IMG/VR virus record: IMGVR_UViG_3300025151_000041
Coordinates: 1 to 56,594 of that record
Strand: one strand, 5' to 3'
DNA: 56,594 bases
Source: a virus
Taxonomy: Duplodnaviria; Caudoviricetes
Shown here one piece after another: positions 13,495 to 43,202 of this stretch (position 1 is its first letter; every line of letters starts with the position of its first letter). The notes under the pieces are model-generated. The model saw nothing but the letters and a program-made list of their open reading frames with translations. It was not told the origin of the DNA and made no database searches. The translations under genes and the position numbers were made by a program.

Positions 13495-13580
13495 GTTGCC
13501 CTCTTTCTGATAGGGTTTGTATTGCTTAAACTTAACAAATATTGTAATATAAAACTATACTTTTTTTATCTTTTCTTAAC

Positions 13581-13749: not shown

Positions 13750-13968
13750 ATGGAAGAACCAAAATGTAATATTTGTAAGGATTTAAAGTACGTTTGTATG
13801 CTAGATGTAAATGATGCTCCACGAGCCTCTACGGTATGTCGGTGTTACAAGTGCAATGTACCAAGAGAAGATGCTGAAACTGGAAAAACAGCAGATTCTA
13901 TTGTTTTTCGAGGGAACAAAAAACAGGTGTACGAAAAGTTCTATGAACTAACAACAGACAAAAATTAA
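13750..13968 (+). CDS. small Cys-rich (Zn-binding) protein
   Basis: CxxC...CxCxxC; AGAAAGG leader. Confidence 0.55.
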   Translation: MEEPKCNICKDLKYVCMLDVNDAPRASTVCRCYKCNVPREDAETGKTADSIVFRGNKKQVYEKFYELTTDKN

Positions 13969-14027
13969 CTTTGCTTATGCTTTTTAGTATGGCATTGTAT
14001 ATAACTTATTAGCATGGGGAGAAAGCC

Positions 14028-20345: not shown

Positions 20346-20708
20346 ATGGTTATGGCAGTAGTACAGATACATTGGTACACTCGTATCAAACCACTTGTAG
20401 ATAAACCTCCAATTCGTGAGGGAACAATTCGTTATAGAAATATGTTTGTTGTCATTCGTAGCCAAACAGTACGAGAGGCTTTGCACAGGCTCAAACAATT
20501 AGAGCCAAAAGGCAGTATGAAAGACATACACTTAGCCGTAAAAAAAGAAGCGGTAGAACTTATGTATCCTGAGGACATGGCAGAAGAGCAATACGCAAGT
20601 ATTGATGAATCTATACGCATGAGTTTAGAAGGGTTGGAAAGTGTAGAGTCTAGAACACAAAAGCTAACAACGTATATGAAGGAGTTTAATGATGACAAAC
20701 CTTCCTGA
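20346..20708 (+). CDS. hypothetical protein heading the DNA-modification operon
   Basis: 120 aa; TATAAT and AGAAAGG leader; overlaps the next gene. Confidence 0.55.
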   Translation: MVMAVVQIHWYTRIKPLVDKPPIREGTIRYRNMFVVIRSQTVREALHRLKQLEPKGSMKDIHLAVKKEAVELMYPEDMAEEQYASIDESIRMSLEGLESVESRTQKLTTYMKEFNDDKPS

Positions 20709-21624
20709 CGCTACATTGAAAAAATACCAAGAATTTTACTATTGGATAAACGAAAGACACGCAATATATCAAAAGCGTAAGGAAAATCTTCCTCCTCCTT
20801 GGACAGATGACCCCATACTACAAGAATATAAATTTACAAACCCTTTTCGTGAAAACGATAGAGACACAATATGGATGAGACAAAATTGGACTAAGCCACA
20901 CCATAACAGACCACACGGAGAAATTATATTCAACTGTTGTTTGTTCCGTATGGTTGGCACACCAGAATTTGCCGAACATCACGGGTGGGTTCATGACATG
21001 AATGGCACTTGGGACTCAGAAAAAACAAAAGAAATTATAGAGCTTCGATTATCTCAACGTCAAAAAACTTTTACAGGAGCTTACATAATTCCAAACAGGG
21101 GTTTGACTTTACCAAAATCGCAAGTTGTTGTGGATCTTTTTCTTAAACCAATATGGGAAAATCGAGAAGTGATAGCAAATGTCGCCAAGTGTTCGCAGTC
21201 TTTACAACACACACATGAACACTTTGCCAATTACAATGGTTGGGGTGGTGGCGGATTTATGGCGTATGAAGTTGTAACAGATTTAAACAACACACCTGTT
21301 CTTAAAGATGCACAAGACCGTTACAGGTGGGCGAACGCAGGACCAGGAGCAAGGAGAGGTTTAAATAGGTTACATGGCAGACCACTCAAAAAACGATACC
21401 CTATGAGTCAGCTTAACGACGAGATGAACCATTTGTTAAGTTGGGCAGAGGCTTTTGCAGGTGATCATGTTCCTAAAAACGAAATTGATATGCGTGTTAT
21501 AGAGCATAGTTTGTGTGAATGGGATAAATACCAACGAGTATTGTTAAACGAGGGTAGACCTAGATCAAAGTACAATCCTGACTTAGTATCTAATCACAAT
21601 TTTGTAGCAGGACCGATTGACTAA
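20689..21624 (+). CDS. 5-hmdU DNA kinase helical-domain (aGPT-PPlase1-type) DNA base-modification protein
   Basis: WINERH.IY, PPPWTDDPILQEYKFTN..RE.DR.T.W, G.GGFMAYEVVTDL, AGPGARRGL, IEHSLCEWDKY. Confidence 0.8.
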   Translation: MMTNLPDATLKKYQEFYYWINERHAIYQKRKENLPPPWTDDPILQEYKFTNPFRENDRDTIWMRQNWTKPHHNRPHGEIIFNCCLFRMVGTPEFAEHHGWVHDMNGTWDSEKTKEIIELRLSQRQKTFTGAYIIPNRGLTLPKSQVVVDLFLKPIWENREVIANVAKCSQSLQHTHEHFANYNGWGGGGFMAYEVVTDLNNTPVLKDAQDRYRWANAGPGARRGLNRLHGRPLKKRYPMSQLNDEMNHLLSWAEAFAGDHVPKNEIDMRVIEHSLCEWDKYQRVLLNEGRPRSKYNPDLVSNHNFVAGPID

Positions 21625-22940
21625 TGAAATTTTTAATGACTATACACTATATTCAAGATTATGGTGGGATAATGAACCACGCCGAATATCTTGCAAAAGG
21701 TTTAAAAGCACTTGGGCATGAAGTTGATTTTGTTTCGTTGCTTCCGCAATTTTCGACAACACAAAGCAATCGACCACGAAAAGATATGGAAGAGTATCGT
21801 ACTGTTGGCACAGGATACCCCTACCACCAGAAACGAGGATGGATGGGTGTACCAAGAGTAGGCTATCGAGATATGTACACAAGAAAAAAGTGGCTAGAAA
21901 AATGCAGTAAGTATGATGCCGTGTTGTGGCACTTGCCTGTTCCTGCTCTAACAGCTCCAAACAAAAATGTTCAAGAGTGGGTAGAGCTTTACGATCATGG
22001 GAGCAAAAACATAGCAATAATACATGATGGTAATTTAAGAGAACGCAACTGTCATTTGCTTCATGTTTCGGATAAGTTTCATGCTATGGTTTGTGTTCAT
22101 GAATCCGCTATGGGTTCAGCAGATGTAATCGACATACCCCGAAAGCTGATTGTAAACCCTTTCGATTTTGACTTGGAGCAACTTGAAAACGACATATACG
22201 GTAACTCTAACTTTGAACAAAGAAGCGGTTTTTGTGCAGTACAGGTATTCAAAGGCTGGAAACGTGTTGATACTTTAATAAGAGCAATACCCCACATGAA
22301 AAACCAAGAACAGAAAACACTTGGTGGTTTGGGTATAGAGTTTCGTTACATGACAAGCAAGGATAAATGCAAGCCGAAGTATTTTGAAAAAGGAGAACGT
22401 ATTTGGGATATTGCTTTGCGTCATGGCATGAAACATTTAGGAGCTGTTCCGAATGACAATGTGTATAAGTTACTTCAAACAGCAAAGGTACAAATAGACC
22501 CTAGCTTTAGTGACAAGTATCGTAAGTTTGGTTCTCATTTTAACCGCACAACTATAGAAGCTATAATTAATGGTACTGTTCCTATGGCAACTGATTGGGG
22601 TATGCAAGACAGTAAGATATTCACTCCTGGAGAAAACTTCATTGAAATACCTAAAAGTAGTTCACCACAACAATTTGCTGAAATTGTTGACGGTGCGTTA
22701 AATGATCACGTTTTCTGGCAACGAGTGAGAGAAACTAATTTACAGATTATCGAGCAATTTCACATGGTAAACGTAGCAAGTGAGTATGTAAAACTTGTCA
22801 CTGACCCTGTTAATTCCTTACCAAAAGGAACACCAGATTTAACAACTCAATTAAACTGTGTGGAAACTTTAAAATATTTCAATGTAGAGCCAAAAGAGGT
22901 AGGAGTATTGCAAGCAGAGAAACAGGCAACACTTTTTTAG
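21624..22940 (+). CDS. GT-B fold glycosyltransferase
   Basis: N-terminal YGG...L.KGLKALGHEV; KGWKRVDTLIRA; HFNRTTIEAIINGTVP. Confidence 0.75.
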   Translation: MKFLMTIHYIQDYGGIMNHAEYLAKGLKALGHEVDFVSLLPQFSTTQSNRPRKDMEEYRTVGTGYPYHQKRGWMGVPRVGYRDMYTRKKWLEKCSKYDAVLWHLPVPALTAPNKNVQEWVELYDHGSKNIAIIHDGNLRERNCHLLHVSDKFHAMVCVHESAMGSADVIDIPRKLIVNPFDFDLEQLENDIYGNSNFEQRSGFCAVQVFKGWKRVDTLIRAIPHMKNQEQKTLGGLGIEFRYMTSKDKCKPKYFEKGERIWDIALRHGMKHLGAVPNDNVYKLLQTAKVQIDPSFSDKYRKFGSHFNRTTIEAIINGTVPMATDWGMQDSKIFTPGENFIEIPKSSSPQQFAEIVDGALNDHVFWQRVRETNLQIIEQFHMVNVASEYVKLVTDPVNSLPKGTPDLTTQLNCVETLKYFNVEPKEVGVLQAEKQATLF

Positions 22941-23052: not shown

Positions 23053-24102
23053 ATGACTACACAATTAAATGGTAAATTAGGCACACATAGGGGTGTGACG
23101 GCGTTTTCTTTCAAAGACATAAACGAAGCTCTGTATGTTTTAAAAGAGGAAGTGTTAGAAAATGGTGACAGAGTAGAAACTCGAAATGGAACAGCTTACG
23201 AAATTCCATCACCTGTTGCCGTAACATTTAACAGACCAACAAGGCGAGTTTTGTTCTACAGACAGAGAGATGCCAACCCTGTTTTCCATTTTTTAGAAAG
23301 TATATGGATGTTAGCAGGTCGTAACGATCTTGCATGGATACAAAATTATAACAAAAGAATGGCAGAGTATAGCGACGACGGTGAAATTTTCAATGGTGCG
23401 TATGGATATAGGTGGCGAAACCACTTCGACAAAGACCAAATAGAAATAGCTTGCCAAAGATTAATAGAATACGAAAACGATAGAAGAGCAGTGGTAACAA
23501 TGTGGGATCCTACCTTCGACCTTACAGATTCTAACAAAGGTAAAGATCACCCCTGCAACACTCACATATACTTTTCGGTAAGAAAAAACAGGCTCGATAT
23601 GACAGTATGCAACCGAAGTAACGATTTAATCTGGGGTATGTGCGGAGCAAACGCAGTACATATGAGTATGCTACAGGAATATATGGCTTCTGTTATCGAC
23701 GCAGGGATTGGTATTTACACACAATTTACCAATAACCTTCATGCTTACTTTGATACGCTAGAAAAACTTGTCGATATGCAACCTGACTATGATGCTTACA
23801 AGACAAGAGGATTAGTGCCATACCCATTAGTTGATGAGCCGTCAACCTTTTTAAAAGAAGCAGAAAAGTTTTGCTCTGAAATAATCGCAATGGAAAAGAT
23901 GACCGAAAAGAAATTAAATTACGTCTACGACAATACAGTTTTCGAAGAAGTAGGTTTACCAATGCACAATATGTATATGGCGTGGAAAGATAAAAATTAT
24001 GACGAAGCCTATTTGTGTGCTATGGACATAAAAGCCGCAGATTGGAGACTTGCTTGTAAAGAATGGCTCGAAAGGAGAAAACCGAATGGCAAACGTATAT
24101 AG
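23053..24102 (+). CDS. thymidylate synthase-family enzyme, probable dUMP hydroxymethylase
   Basis: GAYGYRWR, RRAV..MWDP, catalytic PC (KDHPCN), RSND..WG..GANAVH with Asn at the dUMP-specificity position, NNLHAY. Confidence 0.8.
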   Translation: MTTQLNGKLGTHRGVTAFSFKDINEALYVLKEEVLENGDRVETRNGTAYEIPSPVAVTFNRPTRRVLFYRQRDANPVFHFLESIWMLAGRNDLAWIQNYNKRMAEYSDDGEIFNGAYGYRWRNHFDKDQIEIACQRLIEYENDRRAVVTMWDPTFDLTDSNKGKDHPCNTHIYFSVRKNRLDMTVCNRSNDLIWGMCGANAVHMSMLQEYMASVIDAGIGIYTQFTNNLHAYFDTLEKLVDMQPDYDAYKTRGLVPYPLVDEPSTFLKEAEKFCSEIIAMEKMTEKKLNYVYDNTVFEEVGLPMHNMYMAWKDKNYDEAYLCAMDIKAADWRLACKEWLERRKPNGKRI

Positions 24103-31316: not shown

Positions 31317-31466
31317 ATGGAAATCTTAACATGGGTTAACACTTTGATATCGTTGAGCTTTTGTCTTTCGCCAAGTATTCTTTTGTACAAAGTAGATTTG
31401 CATGGATTGACGCTTGCTTGGATTTTCTGCACCATGAGTATTTTTGCTTCCATGTTGTGGCTATAG
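31317..31466 (+). CDS. small membrane protein (49 aa)
   Basis: Manual: MEILTWVNTLISLSFCLSPSILLYKVDLHGLTLAWIFCTMSIFASMLWL*. Confidence 0.4.
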   Translation: MEILTWVNTLISLSFCLSPSILLYKVDLHGLTLAWIFCTMSIFASMLWL

Positions 31467-31518
31467 ATTAAAAAGTGTTTTGTAAGAAAAATTTAGTGTT
31501 TTATAATAAAATAAAGTT

Positions 31519-31617
31519 AAGCAGTAGAACGTGTTAACAAGGATATGCTGACGTTCTTGGCACAAAGGTTTTACAGGTGTTCTACTGTTTTGGTTAATCT
31601 GTAGAACCAAGTCAGCA
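31519..31617 (+). ncRNA. candidate pseudoknotted 5' leader RNA
   Basis: Three complementary helices between a TATAAT promoter and the RBS of ORF 31650 (see findings). Confidence 0.4.
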
Positions 31618-31649
31618 CCACTTTTACACAACCAAAGAAAGGGTTTGTT

Positions 31650-31898
31650 ATGGCAGATGTTCATTGTAGGTTTTGTGGAGAGCCTACCGAAATAGAATTT
31701 TTCCACGAAGCCGAAGATATTAATGGTCGGCTGATGAGTTTCAAAGAAGCAAGTGCAAAGTTTGTCAAGTATGGGTGTGGTTTTCAAGAAGAAGAAAAAT
31801 GCACATATTCAATGGTTGACAAGAACAGGGCAATAGAGGCAGAGGCTTTACAAGCACTCTCCGAACACCCTGACGATTGGTTTGGGCTACAATGGTAA
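31650..31898 (+). CDS. small Cys-containing early protein
   Basis: HCRFCGEP, GC...C; AGAAAGGG leader. Confidence 0.6.
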   Translation: MADVHCRFCGEPTEIEFFHEAEDINGRLMSFKEASAKFVKYGCGFQEEEKCTYSMVDKNRAIEAEALQALSEHPDDWFGLQW

Positions 31899-31911
31899 GA
31901 AAGGTAAGCAA

Positions 31912-32478
31912 ATGACAAAGTTATTTCCAGAAAGCGAAGACGAAGAAGACAATGCCGTGTGTACAGACATTGCAAGTCGAGACGAGTTAGGTCGAAAGGT
32001 AAATCGAGACGAGTTAGGTCGAGAAGAGTCTATTTCACCAACTCCAGAAGCAGAAGAACTTGCTAATTCTATGTTTGATTTCCAAAGTACATTAACCACT
32101 TTTGTTGACTCGACAGTGGCTCAAGAAGAACACCTTACTAGCAGGTTAGACAAGCAACTTGAAATGATAAAAGCTCTGCAGGAAAAAGTCGACGATCTTA
32201 CGTCACGGCACAAAGATATTCATGACAGTATTCAAGGTGATTGGTTGAAACAACAAGTCGAAGATTCTATAAAAGACGATTGGTTGCAGGAAGAAGTTGA
32301 ACGCTTAGTATGGCGAACCTGCGAAGAAGCCAAAGAAGACATAAAAGATGAAACACGAGACTTCGTTGCCGAAGAAACAAGAAACGATTACAAAGATAAA
32401 TTTGATGAAATGTTTGGAAACATGAGCGAGGAGCTTCGTAAAATTGACGAAAACCTTGCAAAGATATTGAAAAAATGA
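31912..32478 (+). CDS. acidic coiled-coil early protein
   Basis: Start MTKLF after AGAAAGG; very D/E-rich. Confidence 0.6.
   Translation: MTKLFPESEDEEDNAVCTDIASRDELGRKVNRDELGREESISPTPEAEELANSMFDFQSTLTTFVDSTVAQEEHLTSRLDKQLEMIKALQEKVDDLTSRHKDIHDSIQGDWLKQQVEDSIKDDWLQEEVERLVWRTCEEAKEDIKDETRDFVAEETRNDYKDKFDEMFGNMSEELRKIDENLAKILKK
31977..32022 (+). repeat. 19-bp direct repeat, 27-bp period
   Basis: tcgagacgagttaggtcga at 31977 and 32004 (RDELGR x2). Confidence 0.85.
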
Positions 32479-32489
32479 TTTAATAGTTT

Positions 32490-32600
32490 AAATGGTTTCC
32501 TACACCAAGCTGACCATATCCGTCCCCTTGTGAATGGTCGCACACTTAGGGCTAGATGTTCGCACCCCTTCTCTCCATAGAACATCTAGCCTTTTTTTCT
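32490..32600 (+). ncRNA. candidate small RNA with C/U-rich loops ending in a terminator
   Basis: TTGCAA-17-TTTAAT at 32456-32484; hairpins gaccat/atggtc and agggctagatgttc/gaacatctagcctt plus T-tract. Confidence 0.35.
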
Positions 32601-32862
32601 TGGTAAAGTTTTAAAAAAGCAAAGATTTACATGATTTTTTGCAAGGTAGGTAAGTACCCAAAAACACGAAAGACTTACTGTACGGTGATCTATAAGCACT
32701 CTTTTTTAGGCAGAAAACCGCCAATAAAGGCTTTTTACCCCAGATTACTTTTTTGTCTGCTAGAACACAAAAGGTTTGTGTTTGAACAATCCTGTTGTAT
32801 ACTGCTAGGGCAAGTGAGCAAAAGCTCATAAAAAACGCCAAACTCTTAGAAAGGGGGTTATC

Positions 32863-33324
32863 ATGGCAACACCTAAGAAAAAGGTAGTTGAGAAAAAACA
32901 AGACAAACTTGTTTCTTTGAAAACTGCTACTCCAACAAAGGCTATCCCAGTCGAGTTGGAAAGGGGTAAAGACGAACTTACTCCAGCACACGTTCTTACT
33001 TGGATCAATGAAAATGCAGGTGGGGACAAAAACAACGTCGAAGTTGTTCCAGTCGACACCGTTGACCAACAAGCCGAAAAGCCTGTTCCATTTGGCTACG
33101 GCGGAAAAGCTAACGGTCCACGGGCTACGTTCCAAAATTGGCACATTCGTGGTGTAGACGGCGACCGTCGTCTTGGCAAAATTTTGGAAAGTTGTCGTAA
33201 AGTAGATAAATCGCACAGCCAGACCGAAATGATCTGCACTATGGCATTACTGAACGGTGGCTATGGTCGAAATTCTAACACATGGGGTGTTCCCTTTATC
33301 AAGTTAAGGGCTATCCAACCCTAA
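32863..33324 (+). CDS. early hypothetical protein with basic N-terminus
   Basis: AGAAAGGGGG RBS; 153 aa. Confidence 0.65.
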   Translation: MATPKKKVVEKKQDKLVSLKTATPTKAIPVELERGKDELTPAHVLTWINENAGGDKNNVEVVPVDTVDQQAEKPVPFGYGGKANGPRATFQNWHIRGVDGDRRLGKILESCRKVDKSHSQTEMICTMALLNGGYGRNSNTWGVPFIKLRAIQP

Positions 33325-33333
33325 TATCCGCAC

Positions 33334-33428
33334 AGGGCTAAGTGTTCCACAAGAGCACTTAGCCTTTTGTTTCTTGCGTTTTTTGTGGCACTTTATAGTG
33401 TTAACAACAACCATAGAAAGGGTATATT
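33334..33428 (+). promoter_or_regulatory. hairpin-promoter-RBS cassette boundary, copy A
   Basis: agggctaagtgttc-cacaa-gagcacttagcctt; TTGCGT...TATAGT; gttaacaacaaccatagaaaggg. Confidence 0.7.
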
Positions 33429-33878
33429 ATGGAACCAGATTTAATTATAAATCGTACTTTACAATCCAGCTTGTTTAAGGATCCAAGTTTAAAGCATCAT
33501 GGCTTTATGTTTTTCGACAGTATTCTCGATAACAAAAATTTCTTGCAAGCCTTAAAAACAAGAAATTATAATGATCGGCAAATTACACATTTAGATCTTT
33601 TATACCAATCATTTTGCCGATATCCAAATCGTACAACGTGGGCTTTGGTTACTTCTTTTTCCGACGAAGCCAACGTATTTGTTTCCGATTACTGTAACAA
33701 ACATCTAACACACCAAGAAAAATTTAACCTGTTAGACGAAAATACAAATCTCGGCTACACACGTTGGATCGACAAAACAACAGGTGAAAAATACCACTGC
33801 GTCCAAGTCGTCGACGATCTCGACACCGACGAAAGTGCAGAACCAGCAAGCGAAATCTGGTTTTTCGGTGGCGTTTAA
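33429..33878 (+). CDS. early hypothetical protein
   Basis: 149 aa after cassette leader. Confidence 0.65.
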   Translation: MEPDLIINRTLQSSLFKDPSLKHHGFMFFDSILDNKNFLQALKTRNYNDRQITHLDLLYQSFCRYPNRTTWALVTSFSDEANVFVSDYCNKHLTHQEKFNLLDENTNLGYTRWIDKTTGEKYHCVQVVDDLDTDESAEPASEIWFFGGV

Positions 33879-33886
33879 AATCTAGC

Positions 33887-33922
33887 AACTAGGCACGTTC
33901 TACGGGGCGTGTCTAGTTTTTA
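33887..33922 (+). terminator. intrinsic terminator-like hairpin
   Basis: aactaggcacgttc-tacg-gggcgtgtctagtt followed by T-tract. Confidence 0.65.
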
Positions 33923-33947
33923 ATTATTTATTGTGAAAGGCAAAGTT

Positions 33948-34385
33948 ATGGAAAACAATTTACAATGGTTTTTAGAAAACTGTAAAAAACAATGTACTAG
34001 GGAAATGCTTTACAAAGATCCTTTAAACTTAGGTTCTGGAAGAAAATACCACGAATCTACTACAGTGGAAATTAAACATTACGACCCCGAAGTAGATACG
34101 ATACCCGAAAAATTCTTAGAAACTCCAGAAGATTGGTACTTCATTTATGATCACATAGAGTTATTAAAAATGTCAAGACCATGGATTAAACATAGCGAAA
34201 ATCCAGAATTTATTTATTCTGACCATATCGACAAAGTGGAAATTTACGTTACAAGACATTTCGGTACTATGAAAACCAGAGATAAACTTAAAGAGATGGT
34301 GCTAAAGGTAAATCACACTGTGTACGGGGAAGGTGGTTATCGTAGCACGGATTATTATCAATTAACTTTAAATGAAGTTAAATAA
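33948..34385 (+). CDS. early hypothetical protein
   Basis: Start MENNL after GAAAGG. Confidence 0.6.
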   Translation: MENNLQWFLENCKKQCTREMLYKDPLNLGSGRKYHESTTVEIKHYDPEVDTIPEKFLETPEDWYFIYDHIELLKMSRPWIKHSENPEFIYSDHIDKVEIYVTRHFGTMKTRDKLKEMVLKVNHTVYGEGGYRSTDYYQLTLNEVK

Positions 34386-34469
34386 CTCTTTGTGACCATT
34401 TGCCGTTTTGGTGGAACGTAGGTTTATGGTACTTTGTAATGTTAACAATTAGCCAAGAAAGGGCAAATT

Positions 34470-34961
34470 ATGAACATGATTGATGATATCGAAATTTCGA
34501 AAAACTTAAATTCCTGGGAAGAGATTAGCTGGGAATTTTTAAACCAAAACGTCTACGATAGTACCGAGTACGACGAAGACGGCAATAACCCATTAGCCAA
34601 AGAAATAGTTGCCAAGTTGCAAGAAATTTTAAGCGGTGATTTAAGCGGTACAGTTCACGACAAAGACAACGATTTTTTGGATAAAATATACCTGTACGAT
34701 CCCGAGATTGGTGGCGAAACACCCGAAGATTTAATTTTGTTTTGCACAAAACAAGACGAGTTTGTTGGGTCCACCGGAAGCCTTAAATGGGTAACAGTGT
34801 GGGAAAAGGACTACGCCGACACAAAAAACCAAACCTATCATTATATAAAAGTTTTAAATGATTACCCCGAAACCCTAGATTACCTTTACATGGAAATTGG
34901 GTTAAGCGGTAGTCCTAACAGTAGCATTACGCCATTCTTTGTAAAAGCAAGAATGTCGTAA
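34470..34961 (+). CDS. early acidic hypothetical protein
   Basis: AGAAAGGG leader; D/E-rich. Confidence 0.65.
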   Translation: MNMIDDIEISKNLNSWEEISWEFLNQNVYDSTEYDEDGNNPLAKEIVAKLQEILSGDLSGTVHDKDNDFLDKIYLYDPEIGGETPEDLILFCTKQDEFVGSTGSLKWVTVWEKDYADTKNQTYHYIKVLNDYPETLDYLYMEIGLSGSPNSSITPFFVKARMS

Positions 34962-34977
34962 CCCAATAACCAAGAAA

Positions 34978-35070
34978 GCAAAGTGTTCTGCGTGAACACT
35001 TTGCCCTTTGTTCTTGCACAACACTTGTTATAATTGCTTATCGACAATAACCATAGAAAGGGGGGTTAAA
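34978..35070 (+). promoter_or_regulatory. hairpin-promoter-RBS cassette boundary, copy B
   Basis: gcaaagtgttc-tgcgt-gaacactttgc; acttgtTATAAT; aaccatagaaagggggg. Confidence 0.7.
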
Positions 35071-35277
35071 ATGGAACCCAAAGTTTTGTTTACTAAAAAA
35101 ATCTTTTTTAACGGTAAGTGGGAAACCGTTAATGTTTATCCAACTGCCGTTGCCCGTGGATTTGGGGCATTGGATCGCAAAGGCACTCGTGGACTAAACA
35201 AAAGACCCACTAGCCTACACGTCACCGACCTTCACGGATTAAAAACCGTTCCTGTTAAATACCCAGAAACCGCATAA
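35071..35277 (+). CDS. small basic early protein
   Basis: Start MEPKV after cassette RBS. Confidence 0.55.
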   Translation: MEPKVLFTKKIFFNGKWETVNVYPTAVARGFGALDRKGTRGLNKRPTSLHVTDLHGLKTVPVKYPETA

Positions 35278-35282
35278 CCAAG

Positions 35283-35381
35283 AAGGGCAAAGTATTCCAC
35301 AAGAGTACTTTGCCCTTTTTTCTTTGGTCTTACTTGTTATAATTACCTGTTAACAACAACCATAGAAAGGGTTTACTAACC
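35283..35381 (+). promoter_or_regulatory. hairpin-promoter-RBS cassette boundary, copy C
   Basis: aagggcaaagtattc-cacaa-gagtactttgccctt; acttgtTATAAT; gttaacaacaaccatagaaaggg. Confidence 0.7.
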
Positions 35382-35846
35382 ATGAAAAAATACGATCTCG
35401 AAAAATGGCAAGGGTATTCTCAACTTGCCACCGTTCCAACCGAAAAGGTGCTTTTTGGTCTTATCGACACAGTTGTCGAAGAAGCAAATGCTAAATGGTC
35501 ATTTAAATGTTTTTTGGAAGTCGATTACGAAGCACAACAAAAAAGAATGCCAGGATCTTATACAGTACCAAAACCACTCTGGTACAATATCGAAGAACAC
35601 GGCGTTCAGCCACAACTTATCGAAGAAATTAAACAGGTTGTCGACAATCCTAAAAAATTGTGCGGTCAACCTATTGTTCTCAATATGCCTCTTGATTTTA
35701 TGGGTTTGGATAAAAGCACCGACGCTGTTCTGCGTGGTATAGAAAAAACCGAAATCAAGTTTTACCACCATCCACAGGGGTTGCTAATCGAAATTTCTTA
35801 CGACGATTACGGTCCTCAAGATTACATTTTATGTCATACAAAATAA
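35382..35846 (+). CDS. early hypothetical protein
   Basis: 154 aa after cassette leader. Confidence 0.65.
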   Translation: MKKYDLEKWQGYSQLATVPTEKVLFGLIDTVVEEANAKWSFKCFLEVDYEAQQKRMPGSYTVPKPLWYNIEEHGVQPQLIEEIKQVVDNPKKLCGQPIVLNMPLDFMGLDKSTDAVLRGIEKTEIKFYHHPQGLLIEISYDDYGPQDYILCHTK

Positions 35847-35865
35847 CCATAGAAAGGGGTTTATC

Positions 35866-36186
35866 ATGGGTTATACAAACTATTGGAAACAACACACAAA
35901 TATTCCAGACGAAGTTTGGGATTCAATACGAAAAGAAATCGAATGGCTAATAGAATATATTGGTGACGGTTGTATCGAAGTGTTGGAAAATAGCTCGGAA
36001 ACTATTGCCTTTAACGGCAGAAAACAAAACGCACACGAAAATTTTGTTCTCAAGAAAACAAAAACCAAGGACGGTTTTAACTTCTGCAAAACCAACAGAA
36101 AACCTTACGATCTCGCAGTATGGCATATTCTAACGTATACAAGCCATTTGTTAGGAACAAATTTCGAAATTAGCAGGGACGAATGA
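35866..36186 (+). CDS. conserved phage hypothetical protein
   Basis: MGYTNYW, FNG....HENF, FNFCKTNRKPYD.AV; aaccatagaaagggg leader. Confidence 0.7.
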   Translation: MGYTNYWKQHTNIPDEVWDSIRKEIEWLIEYIGDGCIEVLENSSETIAFNGRKQNAHENFVLKKTKTKDGFNFCKTNRKPYDLAVWHILTYTSHLLGTNFEISRDE

Positions 36187-36189
36187 CCA

Positions 36190-36359
36190 AGTTTTCTATA
36201 TAGATGTTATAGTGGAGATATTGATGTAAAAGTTTTTCACAAGTACAGAATATACAATATATCTTATATAGTCAAAAGTAACATTTTCCGCTGATATGGG
36301 GTCAAGATATATTTATTTTTTTGATGATCATTTCTTCACTAGCACATCTATAAAGAAAA
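36190..36359. repeat. inverted-repeat-bounded non-coding element, copy 2
   Basis: ttttctatatagatgttatagtg ... cactagcacatctataaagaaaa; shares internal blocks with copy 1. Confidence 0.85.
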
Positions 36360-36394: not shown

Positions 36395-36976
36395 ATGGCA
36401 ACTGTAAAAATGACTCACAAACCCAAACTTGAGGTTGTAGCAAATCCCAAAACCGAGAAGGGAATTTCCCCAAAGCAAGAACGTTTTGCTCAAATTTACT
36501 GTAGCGAAGAACTCACGCAAACGGAAGCGGCAATCAAAGCAGGGTATCCAAAACAATCGGCTCACGTTTTGGCAAGTCAGCTACTCAATGGAAAACGATA
36601 CCCAAAGGTTGTAGAACGTATCCGTGAAATCAAACAAGAACTTGCTCGCAAGTATGAAGTCACATTCGAAAGCCATGTGAAACAACTTGCTTCGCTCCGA
36701 GACAGTGCCGTACAGAATGGCAACTTCTCAGCCGCCGTATCTGCCGAAAAGTATAGAGGTCAAGCGGCTGGATTGTATATCGACAGGAAAGAAATACTGC
36801 ATGGCAAGATTGATCAAATGTCGAAGGAAGAGGTTATGGAAAAAATTAAACAATTACAGCAAGAGTTTCCTGGACTGCAAGCAGTGGCAGAGGGAAACGT
36901 AATCGAAGTGGAGGCAGAGCAAATCACCGATGAAAGTGGAAAGCAAGCTATGGAAACAACTAAAACAAAACACTGA
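36395..36976 (+). CDS. terS: terminase small subunit
   Basis: SPKQERFA...TQTEAAIKAGY....A...ASQLL HTH; AAVSAE..RG...GLY. Confidence 0.8.
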   Translation: MATVKMTHKPKLEVVANPKTEKGISPKQERFAQIYCSEELTQTEAAIKAGYPKQSAHVLASQLLNGKRYPKVVERIREIKQELARKYEVTFESHVKQLASLRDSAVQNGNFSAAVSAEKYRGQAAGLYIDRKEILHGKIDQMSKEEVMEKIKQLQQEFPGLQAVAEGNVIEVEAEQITDESGKQAMETTKTKH

Positions 36977-37385
36977 GCGTGAGGTATTTTGGACACGTAT
37001 TGAGTCATGGTCGCTTCCTGGAGTACCAGATCTTCACGGCATTGTAGATGGTAAAGCATTTTGGTTAGAATTGAAGGTTCACAAACTAAAAAAGATTAAT
37101 AGCTTGCTATTGAGTCCACATCAAAAACTGTGGCAAATCCGCTACACAATGTCTGGCGGTAAAGTTTGGAACTTAGTTGACCACCCTTCCTCCTCCACCC
37201 TCTATTTATTTTTGCCTTCGGAATCATTGGTAAAGGATCAAAAAGTAAGAGTAGAGAAGAAAAGACCGTCATCAAAAGTTTATCATAAAATTGGTAAAGA
37301 TGCAGAGTTAAATAATCCTGTTTGGCAGTCCCCCTCCCCGTATGATTGGAAAGGTTTGATCAATCATATTCTGTCCTCCTTTTAG
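36930..37385 (+). CDS. VRR-NUC / Holliday-junction resolvase-like PD-(D/E)xK nuclease
   Basis: ESKLW, RIES...GVPDL, FWLELK, LSPHQ..W. Confidence 0.75.
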   Translation: MKVESKLWKQLKQNTEREVFWTRIESWSLPGVPDLHGIVDGKAFWLELKVHKLKKINSLLLSPHQKLWQIRYTMSGGKVWNLVDHPSSSTLYLFLPSESLVKDQKVRVEKKRPSSKVYHKIGKDAELNNPVWQSPSPYDWKGLINHILSSF

Positions 37386-37467
37386 AATTGACGTGGTAAG
37401 GTAAGAAAAGGAAAGACGGACAATGGTTTCTGGTCTGTTCTAATCCAGTCAGTAGAAAAGAAAAAAA

Positions 37468-37502
37468 TAGATTAGATTAGACCAGAGTAGATTAGACTAG
37501 AC
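37468..37502. repeat. 7 x 5-bp tandem repeat (consensus TAGAY)
   Basis: tagat tagat tagac cagag tagat tagac tagac. Confidence 0.8.
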
Positions 37503-37606
37503 CCTTTCATACTTACTTGCTCTACGTGACCATAAAACTGTTGTTTAGGACTTATAGTTTGGTAGTTTGTATTTGCTTAATATTAACACAACGAAAGGCA
37601 ACGGTC

Positions 37607-37981
37607 ATGAGCAACGATCATATCGAAAACGACATACTTATAAAAGGCGACCCCAACATAGTTTCTAAGTACCAGCAAATCCTCGAAAACGAATTTGGGT
37701 TGTTTGGGTCAATAGTAGTAAACGAAGGTCCAGGGTGGGCTAGTGTGGGTTGCATTTTCGACGACGATTACAGGCAATACAACGATCTAAAAACATTTGC
37801 TAAAAATTTATTGCAACAGTTAAACAAGTCTAGGGCAAGCCAACGAATATTCGACAGGCACGATCCTGCAAAACTCGAATACCATTGGTATTATATTTTT
37901 GGTAGCGAGATCGACAAACAGTTAAACGGTATAAGTGGTCATTACAGCATGGTTCGAAACTTTTTCGATAATAGGTGTTAG
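37607..37981 (+). CDS. early-type hypothetical protein
   Basis: Start MSNDH after acgaaagg leader. Confidence 0.65.
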   Translation: MSNDHIENDILIKGDPNIVSKYQQILENEFGLFGSIVVNEGPGWASVGCIFDDDYRQYNDLKTFAKNLLQQLNKSRASQRIFDRHDPAKLEYHWYYIFGSEIDKQLNGISGHYSMVRNFFDNRC

Positions 37982-37984
37982 GTC

Positions 37985-38056
37985 ATGGTTGTAGTAGTCA
38001 CAATGTTATTAACACTTTGGATCACTGTTCTTATTCTTGAGTTCTGGGATTGGTAA
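37985..38056 (+). CDS. possible 23-aa membrane peptide
   Basis: Manual: MVVVVTMLLTLWITVLILEFWDW*. Confidence 0.3.
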   Translation: MVVVVTMLLTLWITVLILEFWDW

Positions 38057-38112
38057 AGATGTAGAAGGTAAAGTTTGAGTGGGGAAAAAGATGTAAGGAG
38101 TAAAGCAGGAAG

Positions 38113-38162
38113 GTAAGATCCTAGAACAAGATTTGGTTAGTGTTCTTGTTCTTGGGTCTTAC
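38113..38162. repeat. long imperfect inverted repeat (19-bp stem)
   Basis: gtaagatcctagaacaaga / tcttgttcttgggtcttac. Confidence 0.7.
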
Positions 38163-38227
38163 TCCCTTTATCTATTCATTGCATCTAGCGTTTTTGCCTA
38201 CTGTGGTATTTTTACCACAAAATAGGG

Positions 38228-38295
38228 TTAAATTAAAAAAAGTTAAAAAAGGTTAAAAAAAGGGTTGCAATAGTGTTTTATTGGTGTAGGGTAGT
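38228..38295 (+). promoter_or_regulatory. putative strong promoter with three A-tracts at 10-bp phase (UP element / bend)
   Basis: ttaaaaaaag ttaaaaaagg ttaaaaaaaggg, then TTGCAA (-35) and a TAGGGT-like -10. Confidence 0.55.
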
Positions 38296-38356
38296 ACCTG
38301 TAGCTAGCAATTAACACATAGCTACATAACATTAACCAAATAAGGGTTTAACAATT

Positions 38357-39022
38357 ATGTTAAATAAAAAGCAAGTACCAAGTGCTAGTACTATAAAAAA
38401 AGCACTACCTAAGTTGGCTTTCGAAAGTTTGCCGATACCTGCTAATAGCGAAATGGTTAGCAATTTTTTAAATGCTAACCCTAACAGTGTGTTAACTGTT
38501 AACGTCGATAAGCTTAACCCTAACGCCGAAACTTTAAGTAGTATAGCTTTGGCTAGTGGTGTTAAGTTATACACCGATAAGGTTAAATATACTGTTAGCG
38601 TTAATGCTTACCACGTTGGTATGTACTTACAACAGTACGGCGTACACCCAACAAGTAAAACGCCAATTAGCGGTTTAAAAAAAGGTGTATTGCAGTTAAA
38701 TTTTGGTGCAAGTACTACACCAACTAACAAGCTAGCCGAAATTTATACAAGGGTTAAGCCTAGTGTTTATGCACCTTGTAACGGCGTACCATTTACGGCA
38801 ACGGCTTGTAGTGGTAACGGCAAGTATGCCCATTGCACCTTGTTACCATTGCTTAATGGTTGCAAGTTAAATAATAACAATGGTTACGACGCTAGGGGTA
38901 AACAAGCTAGTAACCCTAACGGTGTACTTGTTACTTTACATAGTAACGCTAACGCCATACAAACGGCTACAGTGCCACAAATAAAGTTTTATAAAAACTT
39001 TATTAAAATATTAAAAGGTTAA
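38357..39022 (+). CDS. basic hypothetical protein encoded in the GA/TC-depleted island
   Basis: 221 aa, only 7 D/E; TAAGGG RBS; terminator directly downstream. Confidence 0.75.
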   Translation: MLNKKQVPSASTIKKALPKLAFESLPIPANSEMVSNFLNANPNSVLTVNVDKLNPNAETLSSIALASGVKLYTDKVKYTVSVNAYHVGMYLQQYGVHPTSKTPISGLKKGVLQLNFGASTTPTNKLAEIYTRVKPSVYAPCNGVPFTATACSGNGKYAHCTLLPLLNGCKLNNNNGYDARGKQASNPNGVLVTLHSNANAIQTATVPQIKFYKNFIKILKG

Positions 39023-39028
39023 ACCTTA

Positions 39029-39058
39029 TGCCCCTAGGCTAACGCCTAGGGGCAATTT
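39029..39058 (+). terminator. hairpin terminator
   Basis: tgcccctaggc-taac-gcctaggggca followed by attt. Confidence 0.7.
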
Positions 39059-39259
39059 AACGGCGGTTTTTTGGCATGGTAATTGCAATAAAAAAGCAAA
39101 ACCCCCCCAAAACGTGAGGGCGAGTAAGCATAGGCTTACGAGCATATTCCAGCTCTAAAATTATGTGTCCAGAAAATACCGTAGTCCGTCGTACCCCTTT
39201 TTTGCATAATGGACTTTAGGTTCATTGCCCTTTGAAAAATTCTATAATATAAGAATTAT

Positions 39260-40720
39260 ATGAACTTGGACATTGCCCCCGAAGAAGCGTTGAAAACGTA
39301 TGCGAAGTTGCTGGGTAGAGCGACGGAGTTAACGGAGAGTGAAAAAGCGAGAAAGAACTTTATTGACTTTGTGCGGAGTGTTTGGCCTGAGTTTATAGGA
39401 GGCAAGCACCATAGTGTAATGGCGGATAAGTTTAACCGAGTGGCGAAGGGTGAGTTAAAGCGGTTGATTGTGAATATGCCGCCGAGACATACAAAATCTG
39501 AATTTGCGAGTTTTTTATTGCCAGCGTGGTTGATGGGTAGAAACCCGAAGTTAAAGATAATGCAGACGACCCACACAGCGGAGCTTGCTTTTAGATTTGG
39601 ACGTAAGGTTCGTAACTTAATGAACACGGAAGATTATGCGAAGGTATTTGAAAAAGTGAAGTTGCGAGCGGACAGCCAAGCGGCAGGTCGGTGGGAAACC
39701 AGTGATGGTGGAGAGTATTTTGCGGCAGGAGTGGGTGGTGCGGTAACGGGACGTGGAGCGGACTTGTTGATAATCGACGACCCACATTCCGAGCAGGATG
39801 CGTTGAACCCGAACAGTTTTGAACACGCCTATGAGTGGTATACCTCTGGACCTCGCCAAAGGCTCCAACCAGGAGGTTCGATAGTTGTCGTGATGACAAG
39901 GTGGGCGGAAAACGATTTAACGGGCAAAGTGCTAAAGCAGATGGCTCGTGATCCGTTGGCGGATAAGTGGGAGGTTGTGGAGTTTCCTGCGTTGTTGCCG
40001 AGTGATACTCCAACGTGGCCAGAGTTTTGGAAACAAGAAGATTTATTGGCGGTAAAGGGTAGCCTAAGTGTAGGAAAGTGGGAGGCACAGTGGCAGCAGA
40101 ACCCGACCAGTGAAACGTCGGCTATTTTAAAACGTGACTGGTGGCAAAAGTGGGAGAAGAAAGATTTACCGAAATTAACGTATGTGATGCAGAGTTATGA
40201 TACGGCGTTCAGTAAAAAAGAGCATTCCGACTATAGTGCGATAACAACGTGGGGAGTTTTTTATCCCCCAGATGGAGGAAAAGCGTGTATAATTCTAGCA
40301 GATGCGAGACGTGGTCGGTGGGATTTTCCTGATTTACGTCGGATAGCGTTAGAGGAATACAAGTATTGGGAGCCAGAAACCGTGTTGATAGAGGCGAAGG
40401 CAAGTGGAATGCCGTTAACACAAGAGTTGCGGAATATGGGAATCCCTGTTACAAATTATAGCCCAAGTAGAGGAAATGATAAATTGAGCCGTGTGAATAG
40501 TGTTGCACCAATTCTAGAAAGCGGTATGGTATATGCTCCCGACACAACGTGGTCGGAAGAGGTGATTGAGGAATGTGCGGCTTTTCCTGCTGGGGAAAAT
40601 GACGATTATGTAGATACGGTAACACAGGCGTTAAGAAGATTTAGAGAAGGCGGTTTTATAGTTCACCCCGAAGACTACGAACCAGAGGACAGCCAACCTC
40701 TAGCAAGGGTATATTACTAA
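39260..40720 (+). CDS. terL: terminase large subunit
   Basis: NMPPRHTKS, GRGADLLIIDDP, VMTRW, SYDTA, DYSA, IEAKASG, DDYVD. Confidence 0.95.
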   Translation: MNLDIAPEEALKTYAKLLGRATELTESEKARKNFIDFVRSVWPEFIGGKHHSVMADKFNRVAKGELKRLIVNMPPRHTKSEFASFLLPAWLMGRNPKLKIMQTTHTAELAFRFGRKVRNLMNTEDYAKVFEKVKLRADSQAAGRWETSDGGEYFAAGVGGAVTGRGADLLIIDDPHSEQDALNPNSFEHAYEWYTSGPRQRLQPGGSIVVVMTRWAENDLTGKVLKQMARDPLADKWEVVEFPALLPSDTPTWPEFWKQEDLLAVKGSLSVGKWEAQWQQNPTSETSAILKRDWWQKWEKKDLPKLTYVMQSYDTAFSKKEHSDYSAITTWGVFYPPDGGKACIILADARRGRWDFPDLRRIALEEYKYWEPETVLIEAKASGMPLTQELRNMGIPVTNYSPSRGNDKLSRVNSVAPILESGMVYAPDTTWSEEVIEECAAFPAGENDDYVDTVTQALRRFREGGFIVHPEDYEPEDSQPLARVYY

Positions 40721-40733
40721 AGGAGAATTAACA

Positions 40734-43202
40734 GTGGCTAAAGAACCTTCTGTTTTCAATAATGTTGAAAAGTCGTTGGTACGACCTCCAGCCGCCGCCA
40801 ACAGTTTAGAAGAAGCCGAACTGTTAGAAAAAGAAAACGATTTACTGGCAACGGGTGAGCAACAATTAGAAATCGAAATTGAGGAAGATGACGAGGGTGG
40901 TGCGGTTATCAACTTTGGCAGCGAAACGGAAGTTATTGCTACGGAGTTTGATGGCAACTTGGCGGAGGTGCTTTCCGACCGTGAGCTGAGCGATATTAGC
41001 AGTTATGTAACCCAGAGCCACCAAGATGACAAAAGTTCTAGAGAAGATTGGGAAGATACCTACAGCAAAGGACTTGACCTTTTAGGTTTGCGGTACGAAA
41101 TCCGTACTGAACCGTTTCAGGGAGCGACGGGAGTTATTCACCCAATACTTAACGAAGCTGTAACACAGTTTCAATCGGCGGCTTATAAAGAACTTTTGCC
41201 GAGCAATGGTCCTGTAAAGACAAAAATCATAGGCAAAGTAAATCAAGAAATAGAAAACAAAGCCGACAGAGTAAAAGAATTTTTAAATTATCAGATTATG
41301 TACGAAATGGAAGAGTACGAGCCTGAGTTTGACCAGATGTTGTACTATTTGGGTAACGCTGGCAGTGCTTTTAAGAAAGTTTACTTTGACCAACAGTTAA
41401 ATCGCCCTGTAAGTAAGTTTGTTCCAGCCGAAGATTTGGTTGTACCGTACACAGCGACCGACTTACGCTCTGCAGATCGTGTTACGCATGAAATAAGCAT
41501 GAGTATGAACGAGGCTCGGAAGCAACAGGTAAGTGGATTTTTCCGTGATATCGAGTTAATGCCAGAACAAGAGGGCAGCGAGGACTCAGTACAGGAAAAA
41601 ATGGACAAATTAGAGGGTGTAAAGCCTTCGTACAACGATAAAGACCGTGAACTAACGCTTTTGGAGTGCCATTGCTACCTCGATTTAGAGGATTTTCCTG
41701 ATGTTGGGGAAGATGGCGAGCCAACAGGCGTAAAACTCCCTTATATTGTGACTGTTTGTCGTGATAATGCGGAAGTTTTGGCGGTTCGTCGGAATTATAT
41801 GCAAGATGACCCTAAAAAAACTAAAATTGAGTACTTTGCCCACTATAAATTTACTCCAGGATTAGGGTTTTATGGCTTTGGGCTGATACATCTACTGGGA
41901 AATTTAAGTCGAACAGCGACAAGTACCCTTCGCCAGATGATAGATGCAGGAACATTAAGTAATTTACCAGCAGGGTTTAAAGCAAGAGGGCTGCGAATAG
42001 CAGACGATGAAAACCCTGTCCAGCCAGGAGAGTTTAGGGACGTAGATGTTCCAGGAGGAGATTTAAAAGGAGCTTTGCTGCCACTGCCTTATAAAGAACC
42101 TTCTGGAACTTTATTCCAATTAATGGGTTTTGTTATAGCCAGTGCTGAAAAATTTGTAGGAACACAAGATCTTGGCTTTGAAGGCAACCAAAGTGGAGAT
42201 ATGCCCGTTGGTACAACGGTAGCGTTGCTAGAACGTGGAAGCAAGGTAATCAGTGCGGTGCATAAACGCCTTCATGCGGCTATGCGTATAGAACTCAAAC
42301 TCCTTGCAAAATTATTTTCGGAACTTGCACCCGAAGAAGCCAAATACCCGTATGCTGTAGATGGACAACAAGCAGGACCTCAAGGACAAGTAGGACCAAA
42401 TATTTTTGCTCAGGACTTTAGTGCAGAAATCGACGTATTACCAGTTAGCGATCCTAACATCTTTAGTATGTCGCAACGTATTATGTTAGCACAGGAACAG
42501 CTCAAGTTGGCAATGGCTATGCCAGAGATGCACAATATGTACGAGAGTTTCCGTCGGTTGTACAGTGCGTTGGGTGTCGACAACATAGACGAATTGTTAA
42601 AAAGACCGCCAGATCCTGTGCCTGTAAGTCCAGCCGTAGAAAATGGAAAAGCACCGTTAGTTGTTACGGGTGGGGCTGAACCTCCGAAGGCGTTTCCTGA
42701 ACAAGATCATGATGCTCATATTGCAGCTCACTTGGCATTTTTACAGACAAAAGTGGTAAAAGAATCAACAGCTATATATGCTGTTATTTTGGAGCATATC
42801 TACCAGCACATAGGTTTTAAAGCTGAAATGATGGTTGCCTCAGAAATGCAACAACAGGGTATGCAACCAAACCCACAGCAAAAACCAATGATAGATGCAG
42901 CCATAGCACAGAAAATTGCACAGCTTACAGCCGAGTTTAATGAAATGGAAAAAGAAATGAGTGGTGGCGAACAACAAGATCCGCTTGTTGCGTTAAAACA
43001 ACGTGAACTCGACATAAAAGCTGGAGACCTTGCCCGTAAGCAACAAGATGACCAACGTGGGTTTGAGCTTGATAATAAAAAATTAACTCAAGCAGCTAAT
43101 CTACAAAGGGAAAGAATAGAGTCACAGGAAGACATAGCACAGCTAAGAGCTAATGTTGCAATGGATAAAACGTACAATGCACCAAGAGGAGCAGGACAAT
43201 GA
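40734..43202 (+). CDS. portal protein
   Basis: 822 aa right after terL; GSAFKKVYFD, GFYGFGLIH, PVGTTVALLE; C-terminal coiled coil (P22-like barrel). Confidence 0.85.
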   Translation: MAKEPSVFNNVEKSLVRPPAAANSLEEAELLEKENDLLATGEQQLEIEIEEDDEGGAVINFGSETEVIATEFDGNLAEVLSDRELSDISSYVTQSHQDDKSSREDWEDTYSKGLDLLGLRYEIRTEPFQGATGVIHPILNEAVTQFQSAAYKELLPSNGPVKTKIIGKVNQEIENKADRVKEFLNYQIMYEMEEYEPEFDQMLYYLGNAGSAFKKVYFDQQLNRPVSKFVPAEDLVVPYTATDLRSADRVTHEISMSMNEARKQQVSGFFRDIELMPEQEGSEDSVQEKMDKLEGVKPSYNDKDRELTLLECHCYLDLEDFPDVGEDGEPTGVKLPYIVTVCRDNAEVLAVRRNYMQDDPKKTKIEYFAHYKFTPGLGFYGFGLIHLLGNLSRTATSTLRQMIDAGTLSNLPAGFKARGLRIADDENPVQPGEFRDVDVPGGDLKGALLPLPYKEPSGTLFQLMGFVIASAEKFVGTQDLGFEGNQSGDMPVGTTVALLERGSKVISAVHKRLHAAMRIELKLLAKLFSELAPEEAKYPYAVDGQQAGPQGQVGPNIFAQDFSAEIDVLPVSDPNIFSMSQRIMLAQEQLKLAMAMPEMHNMYESFRRLYSALGVDNIDELLKRPPDPVPVSPAVENGKAPLVVTGGAEPPKAFPEQDHDAHIAAHLAFLQTKVVKESTAIYAVILEHIYQHIGFKAEMMVASEMQQQGMQPNPQQKPMIDAAIAQKIAQLTAEFNEMEKEMSGGEQQDPLVALKQRELDIKAGDLARKQQDDQRGFELDNKKLTQAANLQRERIESQEDIAQLRANVAMDKTYNAPRGAGQ

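Follow-up and report, generated by a model that had tools for sequence, protein, structure and literature searches.

In this study we describe an island in IMGVR_UViG_3300025151_000041, a complete phage genome of 56,594 bp that constitutes the window (the whole stretch of DNA analysed). The island lies 5' of terL, the gene for the large terminase subunit, and the dinucleotides GA and TC are missing from it on both strands in every context except CGA and TCG. It appears to hold a complete expression cassette, and in our reading, to which we give about an even chance, the phage hypermodifies its thymidines at TC and keeps this cassette exempt, probably for the benefit of host RNA polymerase. The phage is an HTVC023P-type pelagiphage, with a TerL 59–63% identical to those of the Pelagibacter phages HTVC027P and HTVC023P and of uncultured '023Pt' phages.

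Written as DGA and TCH (D, any base but C; H, any base but G), the avoided words occur at 4900 sites in the genome, spaced 11.5 bp apart on average, and leave one gap of 931 bp, the second-longest gap being 62 bp. The preceding TC stands at 38184 (in TCT) and the following GA at 39116 (in TGAG). Inside the island GA is found eight times, always as CGA (38423, 38434, 38450, 38507, 38528, 38576, 38738 and 38888), and TC twice, both times as TCG (38421 and 38505); the only strand-symmetric di- and trinucleotides missing are words that contain GA/TC. The original prediction, made from the letters of this DNA, had described GA only as CGA and TC only as TCG, and our recount agrees exactly. What it had said about the coding sequence also holds, all 17 of 17 Ser codons being AGY and 2 of 2 Arg codons AGG, with Asp and Glu together at 3.2% of residues against 13.4% genome-wide. 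The same is true of the recoding of the ribosome-binding site, where TAAGGG stands in place of the AGAAAGGG found at about 31636.

The protein sequence does not account for the absence of DGA/TCH. When the 221-residue product of the island open reading frame (ORF) was rewritten with the codon usage of the genome in 5000 trials, 38.9 ± 4.8 sites were expected, with a minimum of 21 in any trial, against none observed. Shuffling the codons of the ORF among synonymous positions gave 24.2 ± 3.2 sites, with a minimum of 11 and never zero, and therefore the order of codons at their junctions is constrained too. The non-coding DNA of the island is likewise devoid of DGA/TCH, against expectations of 14.9 sites in the 172 bp on the 5' side and 8.0 in the 92 bp on the 3' side, that is, about 23 over 264 bp. 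Since neither strand has a site, whether the DNA is transcribed or not, the constraint acts on duplex DNA and not on mRNA or protein. A constraint at the level of RNA, by which an mRNA lacking GA and UC would escape an endoribonuclease, fits the freedom of the transcribed part from both words. It would, however, require two unrelated RNA words that are exact reverse complements by chance, and the roughly 80 bp 5' of the −35 hexamer and 45 bp 3' of the hairpin and T-run are clean too. Strand symmetry and the clean non-transcribed DNA thus disfavour this explanation, to which we give hardly any chance.

The depletion is not spread over the genome, since the spacing of GA/TC is 9.6 bp in the window against 8.9 bp in the related genome G007, which lacks the modification kinase discussed below, and there is a single island per genome. 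Whole-genome scans found exactly one island, and for GA/TC only, in the window and in three further genomes (G001, G002 and G003). In these four the ratio of longest to mean gap is 25–80 for GA/TC, against at most 17 for all other dinucleotides. The same dinucleotide scan of the whole kinase-less genomes G006 and G007 found no island. An assembly or synthetic artefact was ruled out, since the island recurs in over 20 metagenome contigs that are independent and divergent. A mechanism resembling a diversity-generating retroelement, considered since the ORFs are Asn-rich, was dropped: the pattern is a dinucleotide ban and not A-specific variation, and no reverse transcriptase was found among the ORFs scanned.

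Conservation of the island follows the relatedness of the phages. The relatives comprised 80 viral contigs retrieved with TerL, together with the metagenome contig L002, and were split by TerL identity at 72%, which gave 28 loci at or above this threshold (24 with at least 600 bp upstream of terL) and 53 below it (46 with at least 600 bp). Among the closer relatives, 20 of the 24 loci show a clean stretch immediately 5' of terL, between 415 and at least 1170 bp long. None of the 46 more distant loci has an island; no run in them exceeds 173 bp, and every 400 bp contains at least 24 GA/TC. A further close relative, L023, has a longest run of 306 bp and one GA/TC in its best 400 bp. In the case of L002, the same position is occupied by a homologue of the island ORF (49–52% identity) and a DGA/TCH-free gap of 947 bp. 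The G+C content of the island ranges from 31% to 63% among the relatives and that of the four whole kinase-bearing genomes scanned from 36% to 39%.

The word avoided is not exactly the same throughout. Most relatives exclude all GA/TC, CGA and TCG included, though CG is common in their islands: that of L017 has 117 CG and no CGA/TCG against 43 expected, and that of L016 has 74 CG and no CGA/TCG against 34 expected. CGA/TCG is tolerated only by the window, L002 and L003 (10, 10 and 16 copies), and therefore the general rule is TC, of which TC[A/C/T] is the form found in one sub-clade. The motif TC[A/C/T] advanced in the original prediction is thus right for the sub-clade of the window and too narrow for most relatives, where every TC/GA is excluded.

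All 17 of the 17 islands examined read as a cassette of promoter, ribosome-binding site, ORF and terminator, sited between conserved genes. The DNA upstream is A-rich, and the putative promoter is sigma-70-like, with TTGCAA, TTTACA or TTGCTT as the −35 hexamer; the consensus TTGACA is unusable in an island because it contains GA. Frequently the 5' untranslated region (5'UTR) has a hairpin with an AATTAA loop. The Shine–Dalgarno sequence is of the GGGG/GGGT type, GGAG and AGGA being avoided because they contain GA. Usually a single ORF follows, then a G+C hairpin with a T-run, and then a C-run at the 3' edge. L016 and L017 have two promoter–ORF–terminator units per island (L016, 268–1353, G+C 54%; L017, 1–1170, G+C 63%).

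In the window, the promoter was assigned by alignment with that of L002 (TTGTAT-16-TATATT); a consensus promoter scan did not pick it up at 38265–38292, and a crude count of sigma-70-like matches and −35 hexamers in seven genomes consisted mostly of chance hits and gave no signal. The stem of the 5'UTR hairpin, with an AATTAA or AATAA loop, was recognized by eye in five other islands (L002, L015, L018, L027 and L028), and L007 has it in its normal-copy unit. A terminator scan did not list the window hairpin at 39030–39053, and its homologue in L002 is a canonical terminator. The complete transcription unit previously proposed to lie within the island needs one correction, as the hairpin has no T-run adjacent to it. 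Small ORFs for some 20–25 hydrophobic residues were also observed 5' of the cassette, in the window at 37986–38057, just outside the island; in L015, L018, L019 and L024 short hydrophobic ORFs lie inside the GA/TC-free stretch.

Judged by its sequence, the island ORF of the window is a real coding gene. Compared with L002, its nonsynonymous divergence (dN) is 0.43 and its synonymous divergence (dS) 1.34, and 251 of 645 aligned positions differ, yet no site has been gained in either. Nucleotide divergence is 39% in the island ORF against 5–12% in the flanks, which are 95% and 88% identical between the two, and contigs from other samples match the window up to 38261 and diverge beyond. L003 has a TerL 96% identical to that of the window but a different island ORF, and the site is occupied by ORF families that are unrelated by hhalign. 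For the window and ten relatives, searches of Pfam and PHROGs with the island ORFs gave nothing above noise. A search of a phage collection with the DNA of 37400–40800 found no match, nor did tblastn of the island protein there. AlphaFold2 produced an unusable model of the window protein from five sequences (predicted local distance difference test, pLDDT, 33). The ESM Atlas had no match of at least 0.9 for this protein or for the product of gene X, described next.

The island ORFs of the other relatives form one superfamily (A3 versus A2, hhalign probability 93.9%, E 1.6e-7), which has paralogues elsewhere in the same loci. These paralogues have 12–21 Asp/Glu and ordinary GA/TC, against 0–1 Asp/Glu in the island copies, and in most relatives the island ORF is, from these comparisons, evidently a recoded, Asp/Glu-free paralogue of a conserved gene, which we call X. 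The normal-composition copy of X in the window encodes a hypothetical protein with 207 homologues, 76–99% identical among the 120 matches listed. Its structural model is confident (pLDDT 83). Foldseek returned nothing at E ≤ 0.001 for it, and with VIA-align the best Z was 5.3, the winged-helix rows (Fur, MecI, MCM and ORC) having Z of 3–4, below the noise level of the tool. Between the island family of the window (A4) and the X superfamily the hhalign probability was 0.1–5.9%, which does not show homology; by eye the two look alike, with an N-terminal 'F-L/I-x-A-N' and a C-terminal 'L-L-N-G' motif.

The genes that would modify the DNA are in the same genome. A 5-hydroxymethyl-dU (5-hmdU) DNA kinase, a glycosyltransferase-like protein and a thymidylate-synthase homologue are encoded next to DNA polymerase A; the thymidylate-synthase match is clear, although sequence alone cannot separate a hydroxymethylase from a methylase. 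No member of the aGPT-Pplase family was found among the ten ORFs scanned, a subset of those in the window. Genes for thymidine hypermodification are already on record for the HTVC023P-type clades V, VIII and IX (PMC9599517). [quoted passage not shown] The sites at which 5-hmdU is converted depend on sequence, and the motifs were unknown in 2018 (PMC5889632, PMC8989533). On templates with 5-hydroxymethyluracil (hmU) the output of Escherichia coli RNA polymerase reaches up to 350%, phosphorylation by 5-HMUDK cuts this raised output to about 10% of its level, and bulky groups in the major groove block the polymerase (PMC6457204).

Island and kinase go together. The PF18723 kinase is present in six of six island-bearing records that cover its region (the window and 5/5 long records) and absent from three of three complete island-less genomes (G006, G007 and HTVC027P) and from seven of seven island-less fragments. 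The association is strong, and in phylogenetic terms it amounts to little more than one evolutionary event. The original prediction had tied the island to self-modification by way of hmU. In this regard, the scan of relatives agrees with it, as the island accompanies the kinase and relatives without the kinase cluster have none (0/3 complete genomes and 0/46 loci); the tie is weakened by the fact that essentially one clade is concerned. The benefits that it proposed, a first reading by host RNA polymerase or service as the genome end, are conjectural.

The island, its conservation, its cassette layout, the recoded paralogues and the association with the kinase are firmly observed, and they suggest the following model. 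The phage would make 5-hmdU DNA, on which the 5-hmdU DNA kinase would start a sequence-specific hypermodification, probably where T is followed by C (TC, or TC[A/C/T] in the sub-clade of the window). The unit 5' of terL, with its promoter, hairpin, Shine–Dalgarno sequence, ORF and terminator, would have been purged of such sites on both strands, and its DNA would then carry hmU or T and none of the bulky base. The likely benefit is that unaided host sigma-70 RNA polymerase could read the island from the incoming, fully modified genome. The island gene would be an immediate-early 'bootstrap' gene, in most relatives an Asp/Glu-free duplicate of X and in the window apparently a member of a different, fast-diverging family instead of X. 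That a normal gene should have a recoded duplicate would be understandable if the duplicate had to be expressed at a time when the normal copy cannot be, and the obvious moment would be the entry of the parental genome, fully modified and with host polymerase alone present; from this we infer a bootstrap step in which host polymerase acts first. More tentatively, DNA modified at TC may be a poor template for the host polymerase, the island product, in most lineages that of a recoded duplicate of the regulator-like gene X, may be made first and open the rest of the genome, and the island may then reveal by its letters alone the dinucleotide specificity of the kinase, with a shift from TC to TC[A/C/T] in one sub-clade, a possibility that we hold to be some way below even chances.

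Several points weigh against the modification-exempt cassette. All other window genes contain GA/TC, sigma-70-like promoter regions included (for example 31480–31507), and host polymerase is therefore not totally blocked, unless the island protein relieves the block. This protein, in the window, has no usable structure, no family and no tie to transcription, and its gene is not X. That TC is the context of the modified T in this phage is itself deduced from the sequence, which we count as a limit. The islands of three close relatives are leaky: L007 has a longest run of 190 bp and four GA/TC in its best 400 bp, and L004 and L005 show depletion only, the best 400 bp of each still holding 12 GA/TC. 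Pseudomonas phage M6 (L106+L107) and Stenotrophomonas phage Sonora (L108+L109), which belong to another lineage, bear the kinase and have no island for any dinucleotide, nor for TG and TC combined, and hypermodification as such therefore requires no island. The joint occurrence of kinase and island is confined to what is essentially one clade and could be a coincidence of descent. Finally, the kinase was not seen in the island-bearing fragments G015 and G016, which stop short of its region, nor in three fragments without upstream sequence, none of which reaches it; the kinase site lies 16–18 kb upstream of terL, and these five fragments are 28–39% complete. In the leaky islands (L004 907–1362, L005 3380–3835 and L007 7469–7954) we also observed that the terL-proximal paralogue is very poor in GA/TC and keeps 4–8 Asp/Glu.

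The rapid change of the island genes would be accounted for if, on the same premise of TC modification, the cassette were invisible to type IV (modification-dependent) nucleases or glycosylases of the host and, as a fragment left whole, expressed a fast-evolving counter-defence protein before the modified DNA is attacked or during the attack. ORFs that are swapped or diverge faster than their flanks form an arms-race pattern, and a unit with its own promoter and terminator suits such a role. However, sparing 1 kb cannot rescue a genome that is cut elsewhere, the island gene is mostly a paralogue of the well-conserved X, which is atypical for counter-defence, and there is no known host defence in this system; we regard this explanation as unlikely. 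Alternatively, the avoided word might be the target of a host weapon, such as a DNA deaminase that acts at TC, or else a nuclease or an ADP-ribosyltransferase resembling DarT. Hypermodification would shield the rest of the genome from it, and the lack of the word would protect this unit. TC is the preferred context of several DNA deaminases, DarT motifs contain TC, and the avoidance is total, as if a single hit were harmful. This proposal leaves open why one unit alone gives up the shield, it sits poorly with kinase-less relatives that are island-free despite probably similar hosts, and no such host system has been identified; we consider it quite unlikely.

A role in packaging or ejection deserves attention in view of the location. 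Here some 0.4–1.2 kb beside a cos or pac site would be kept free of bulky bases for the terminase–HNH machinery or for the portal/tail end, with the gene as a passenger. The position between the small terminase and HNH genes and terL is fixed, and the 3' edge always falls on a C-run, beyond which comes a conserved block with a hairpin. On the other hand, the borders track the transcription unit, the two-unit islands of L016 and L017 are longer, and island length varies threefold; a passenger would be more easily lost than recoded, whereas recoded paralogues are kept with dN/dS well below 1. We therefore hold a packaging element to be very unlikely as the reason for the island. The conserved non-coding block between island and terL could nevertheless be a cos/pac site or a control region of the late operon. 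It consists of a hairpin followed by GTACCCC(C)-TTTT, a near-invariant TAGGTTCATTGCC box and TATAAT, found at the same place in L002–L028; by eye, the stem letters of the hairpin vary among relatives and pairing is kept. Block and terL start together (39116–39700) are 95% identical between the window and L002. Rfam gave sub-threshold rows only for 37900–39400 and no match for the block, RNAalifold found 0 pairs in an alignment of the block that was too gappy, and no molecule ends were found when the assembled contigs of four sequencing runs were compared with the window.

Table 1. Features of the island, of its surroundings and of the modification genes in the window
Feature	Position	Strand	Remarks
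5-hmdU DNA kinase	20689–21624	+	PF18723, 170 bits (cut-off 25)
Glycosyltransferase-family-1-like protein	21624–22940	+	Beside kinase; 30.3 bits (cut-off 26.4)
Thymidylate-synthase homologue, presumed dUMP hydroxymethylase	23053–24102	+	phrog_5131, E 5e-103; PF00303, 72 bits
Gene X, normal-composition copy	32863–33324	+	153 residues, 17 Asp/Glu; terminator 33334–33366
Small terminase subunit	36395–36976	+	
HNH endonuclease	36930–37385		After small terminase subunit
Island free of DGA/TCH	38185–39114	.	Both strands; holds 8 CGA and 2 TCG only
Sigma-70-like promoter (putative)	38265–38292	+	−35 TTGCAA 38265–38270, 16-nt spacer, −10 TAGGGT 38287–38292; A-tracts 5'
5'UTR hairpin GTAGCT..AATTAA..AGCTAC	38300–38325	+	Read from sequence
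Shine–Dalgarno TAAGGG	38341–38346	+	Island version without GGAG/AGGA
Island ORF, family F1	38357–39022	+	221 residues; homologues 43–54% identical
Terminator-like G+C hairpin	39030–39053	+	T-run 39067–39072, not adjacent
Run of 7 C at 3' island edge	39102–39108	+	Relatives with C-run at same edge
Conserved non-coding block, island to terL	39116–39259	+	Outside island
Large terminase subunit (terL)	39260–40720	+	phrog_38, E 1.3e-109

Further observations concern the surroundings of these features. Abutting the island on its 5' side, 38040–38184 holds a purine-rich tract with GGTAAG/GTAAAG repeats and then a pyrimidine-rich partial inverted repeat. At the matching position L004, L007 and L023 have 8–14 GA/TC per 50 bp, the avoided word being dense beside the island. 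Farther upstream, 31400–36300 looks like an accessory or early region, with small ORFs in series, several of which have promoter-like sites and strong terminators (33334, 33887, 34978 and 35280). The only clear minus-strand gene is that of an SNF2-type helicase (12061–13494; phrog_62, E 1e-122). Beside it lies the gene at 13750–13968, and around this gene are the genome's second and third longest gaps without DGA/TCH (13508–13569 and 13956–14018, of 61 and 62 bp), both of which overlap promoter-like sequences with a TTGCTT −35 hexamer; their lengths alone are not significant.

GA/TC-free islands appear to be common in nature. If the modification-exempt cassette is confirmed, the phage would be the first virus to keep its DNA modification off a single gene by deleting the target word, hypermodification would have a cost in gene expression around which the phage must engineer, and the sequence specificity of a DNA-modifying enzyme could be read computationally; in the accessible literature the specificity of 5-hmdU kinases is largely unknown, with TG/TC as the inferred context. 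The islands also offer a natural experiment in protein evolution with forbidden codons, in which proteins of 100–225 residues without Asp/Glu stand beside normal paralogues. Our literature search found no report of a dinucleotide-free, modification-exempt cassette in main texts, and supplements may hold motif data; the word 'dinucleotide' is absent from the main text of PMC9599517.

In its thymidylate-synthase homologue and PF18723 kinase, the window is like the hypermodification systems of M6, ViI, phiW-14, SP10 and SH-Ab 15599. It differs from known systems of this type in the glycosyltransferase-like neighbour of the kinase and in having no aGPT-Pplase among the ORFs tested, and it has a putatively modification-free island, whereas the accessible parts of the papers on those five phages mention none. 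The avoidance of restriction sites is similar in that a short word falls far below expectation and coding is bent to fit. In the island, by contrast, the word has two bases, its absence is total and limited to a unit of 0.4–1.2 kb with normal frequencies elsewhere, and the island tracks the phage's own modification gene and not a host enzyme. Morons and early genes at the leading end, such as gene 0.3 (ocr) of T7, resemble it as small self-contained units between conserved genes, with a content that varies among close relatives. Nevertheless, Ocr mimics DNA by being highly acidic, whereas the island proteins are nearly without acidic residues (3.2% in the window, 0–1 residues in most relatives), and morons are not known to exclude a dinucleotide. 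A purely conceptual analogue, with no evolutionary relation, is the vertebrate CpG island, in which a promoter-bearing stretch is likewise set apart by the dinucleotide that is the substrate of modification: in CpG islands the dinucleotide is retained without being methylated, whereas the phage island removes the dinucleotide itself.

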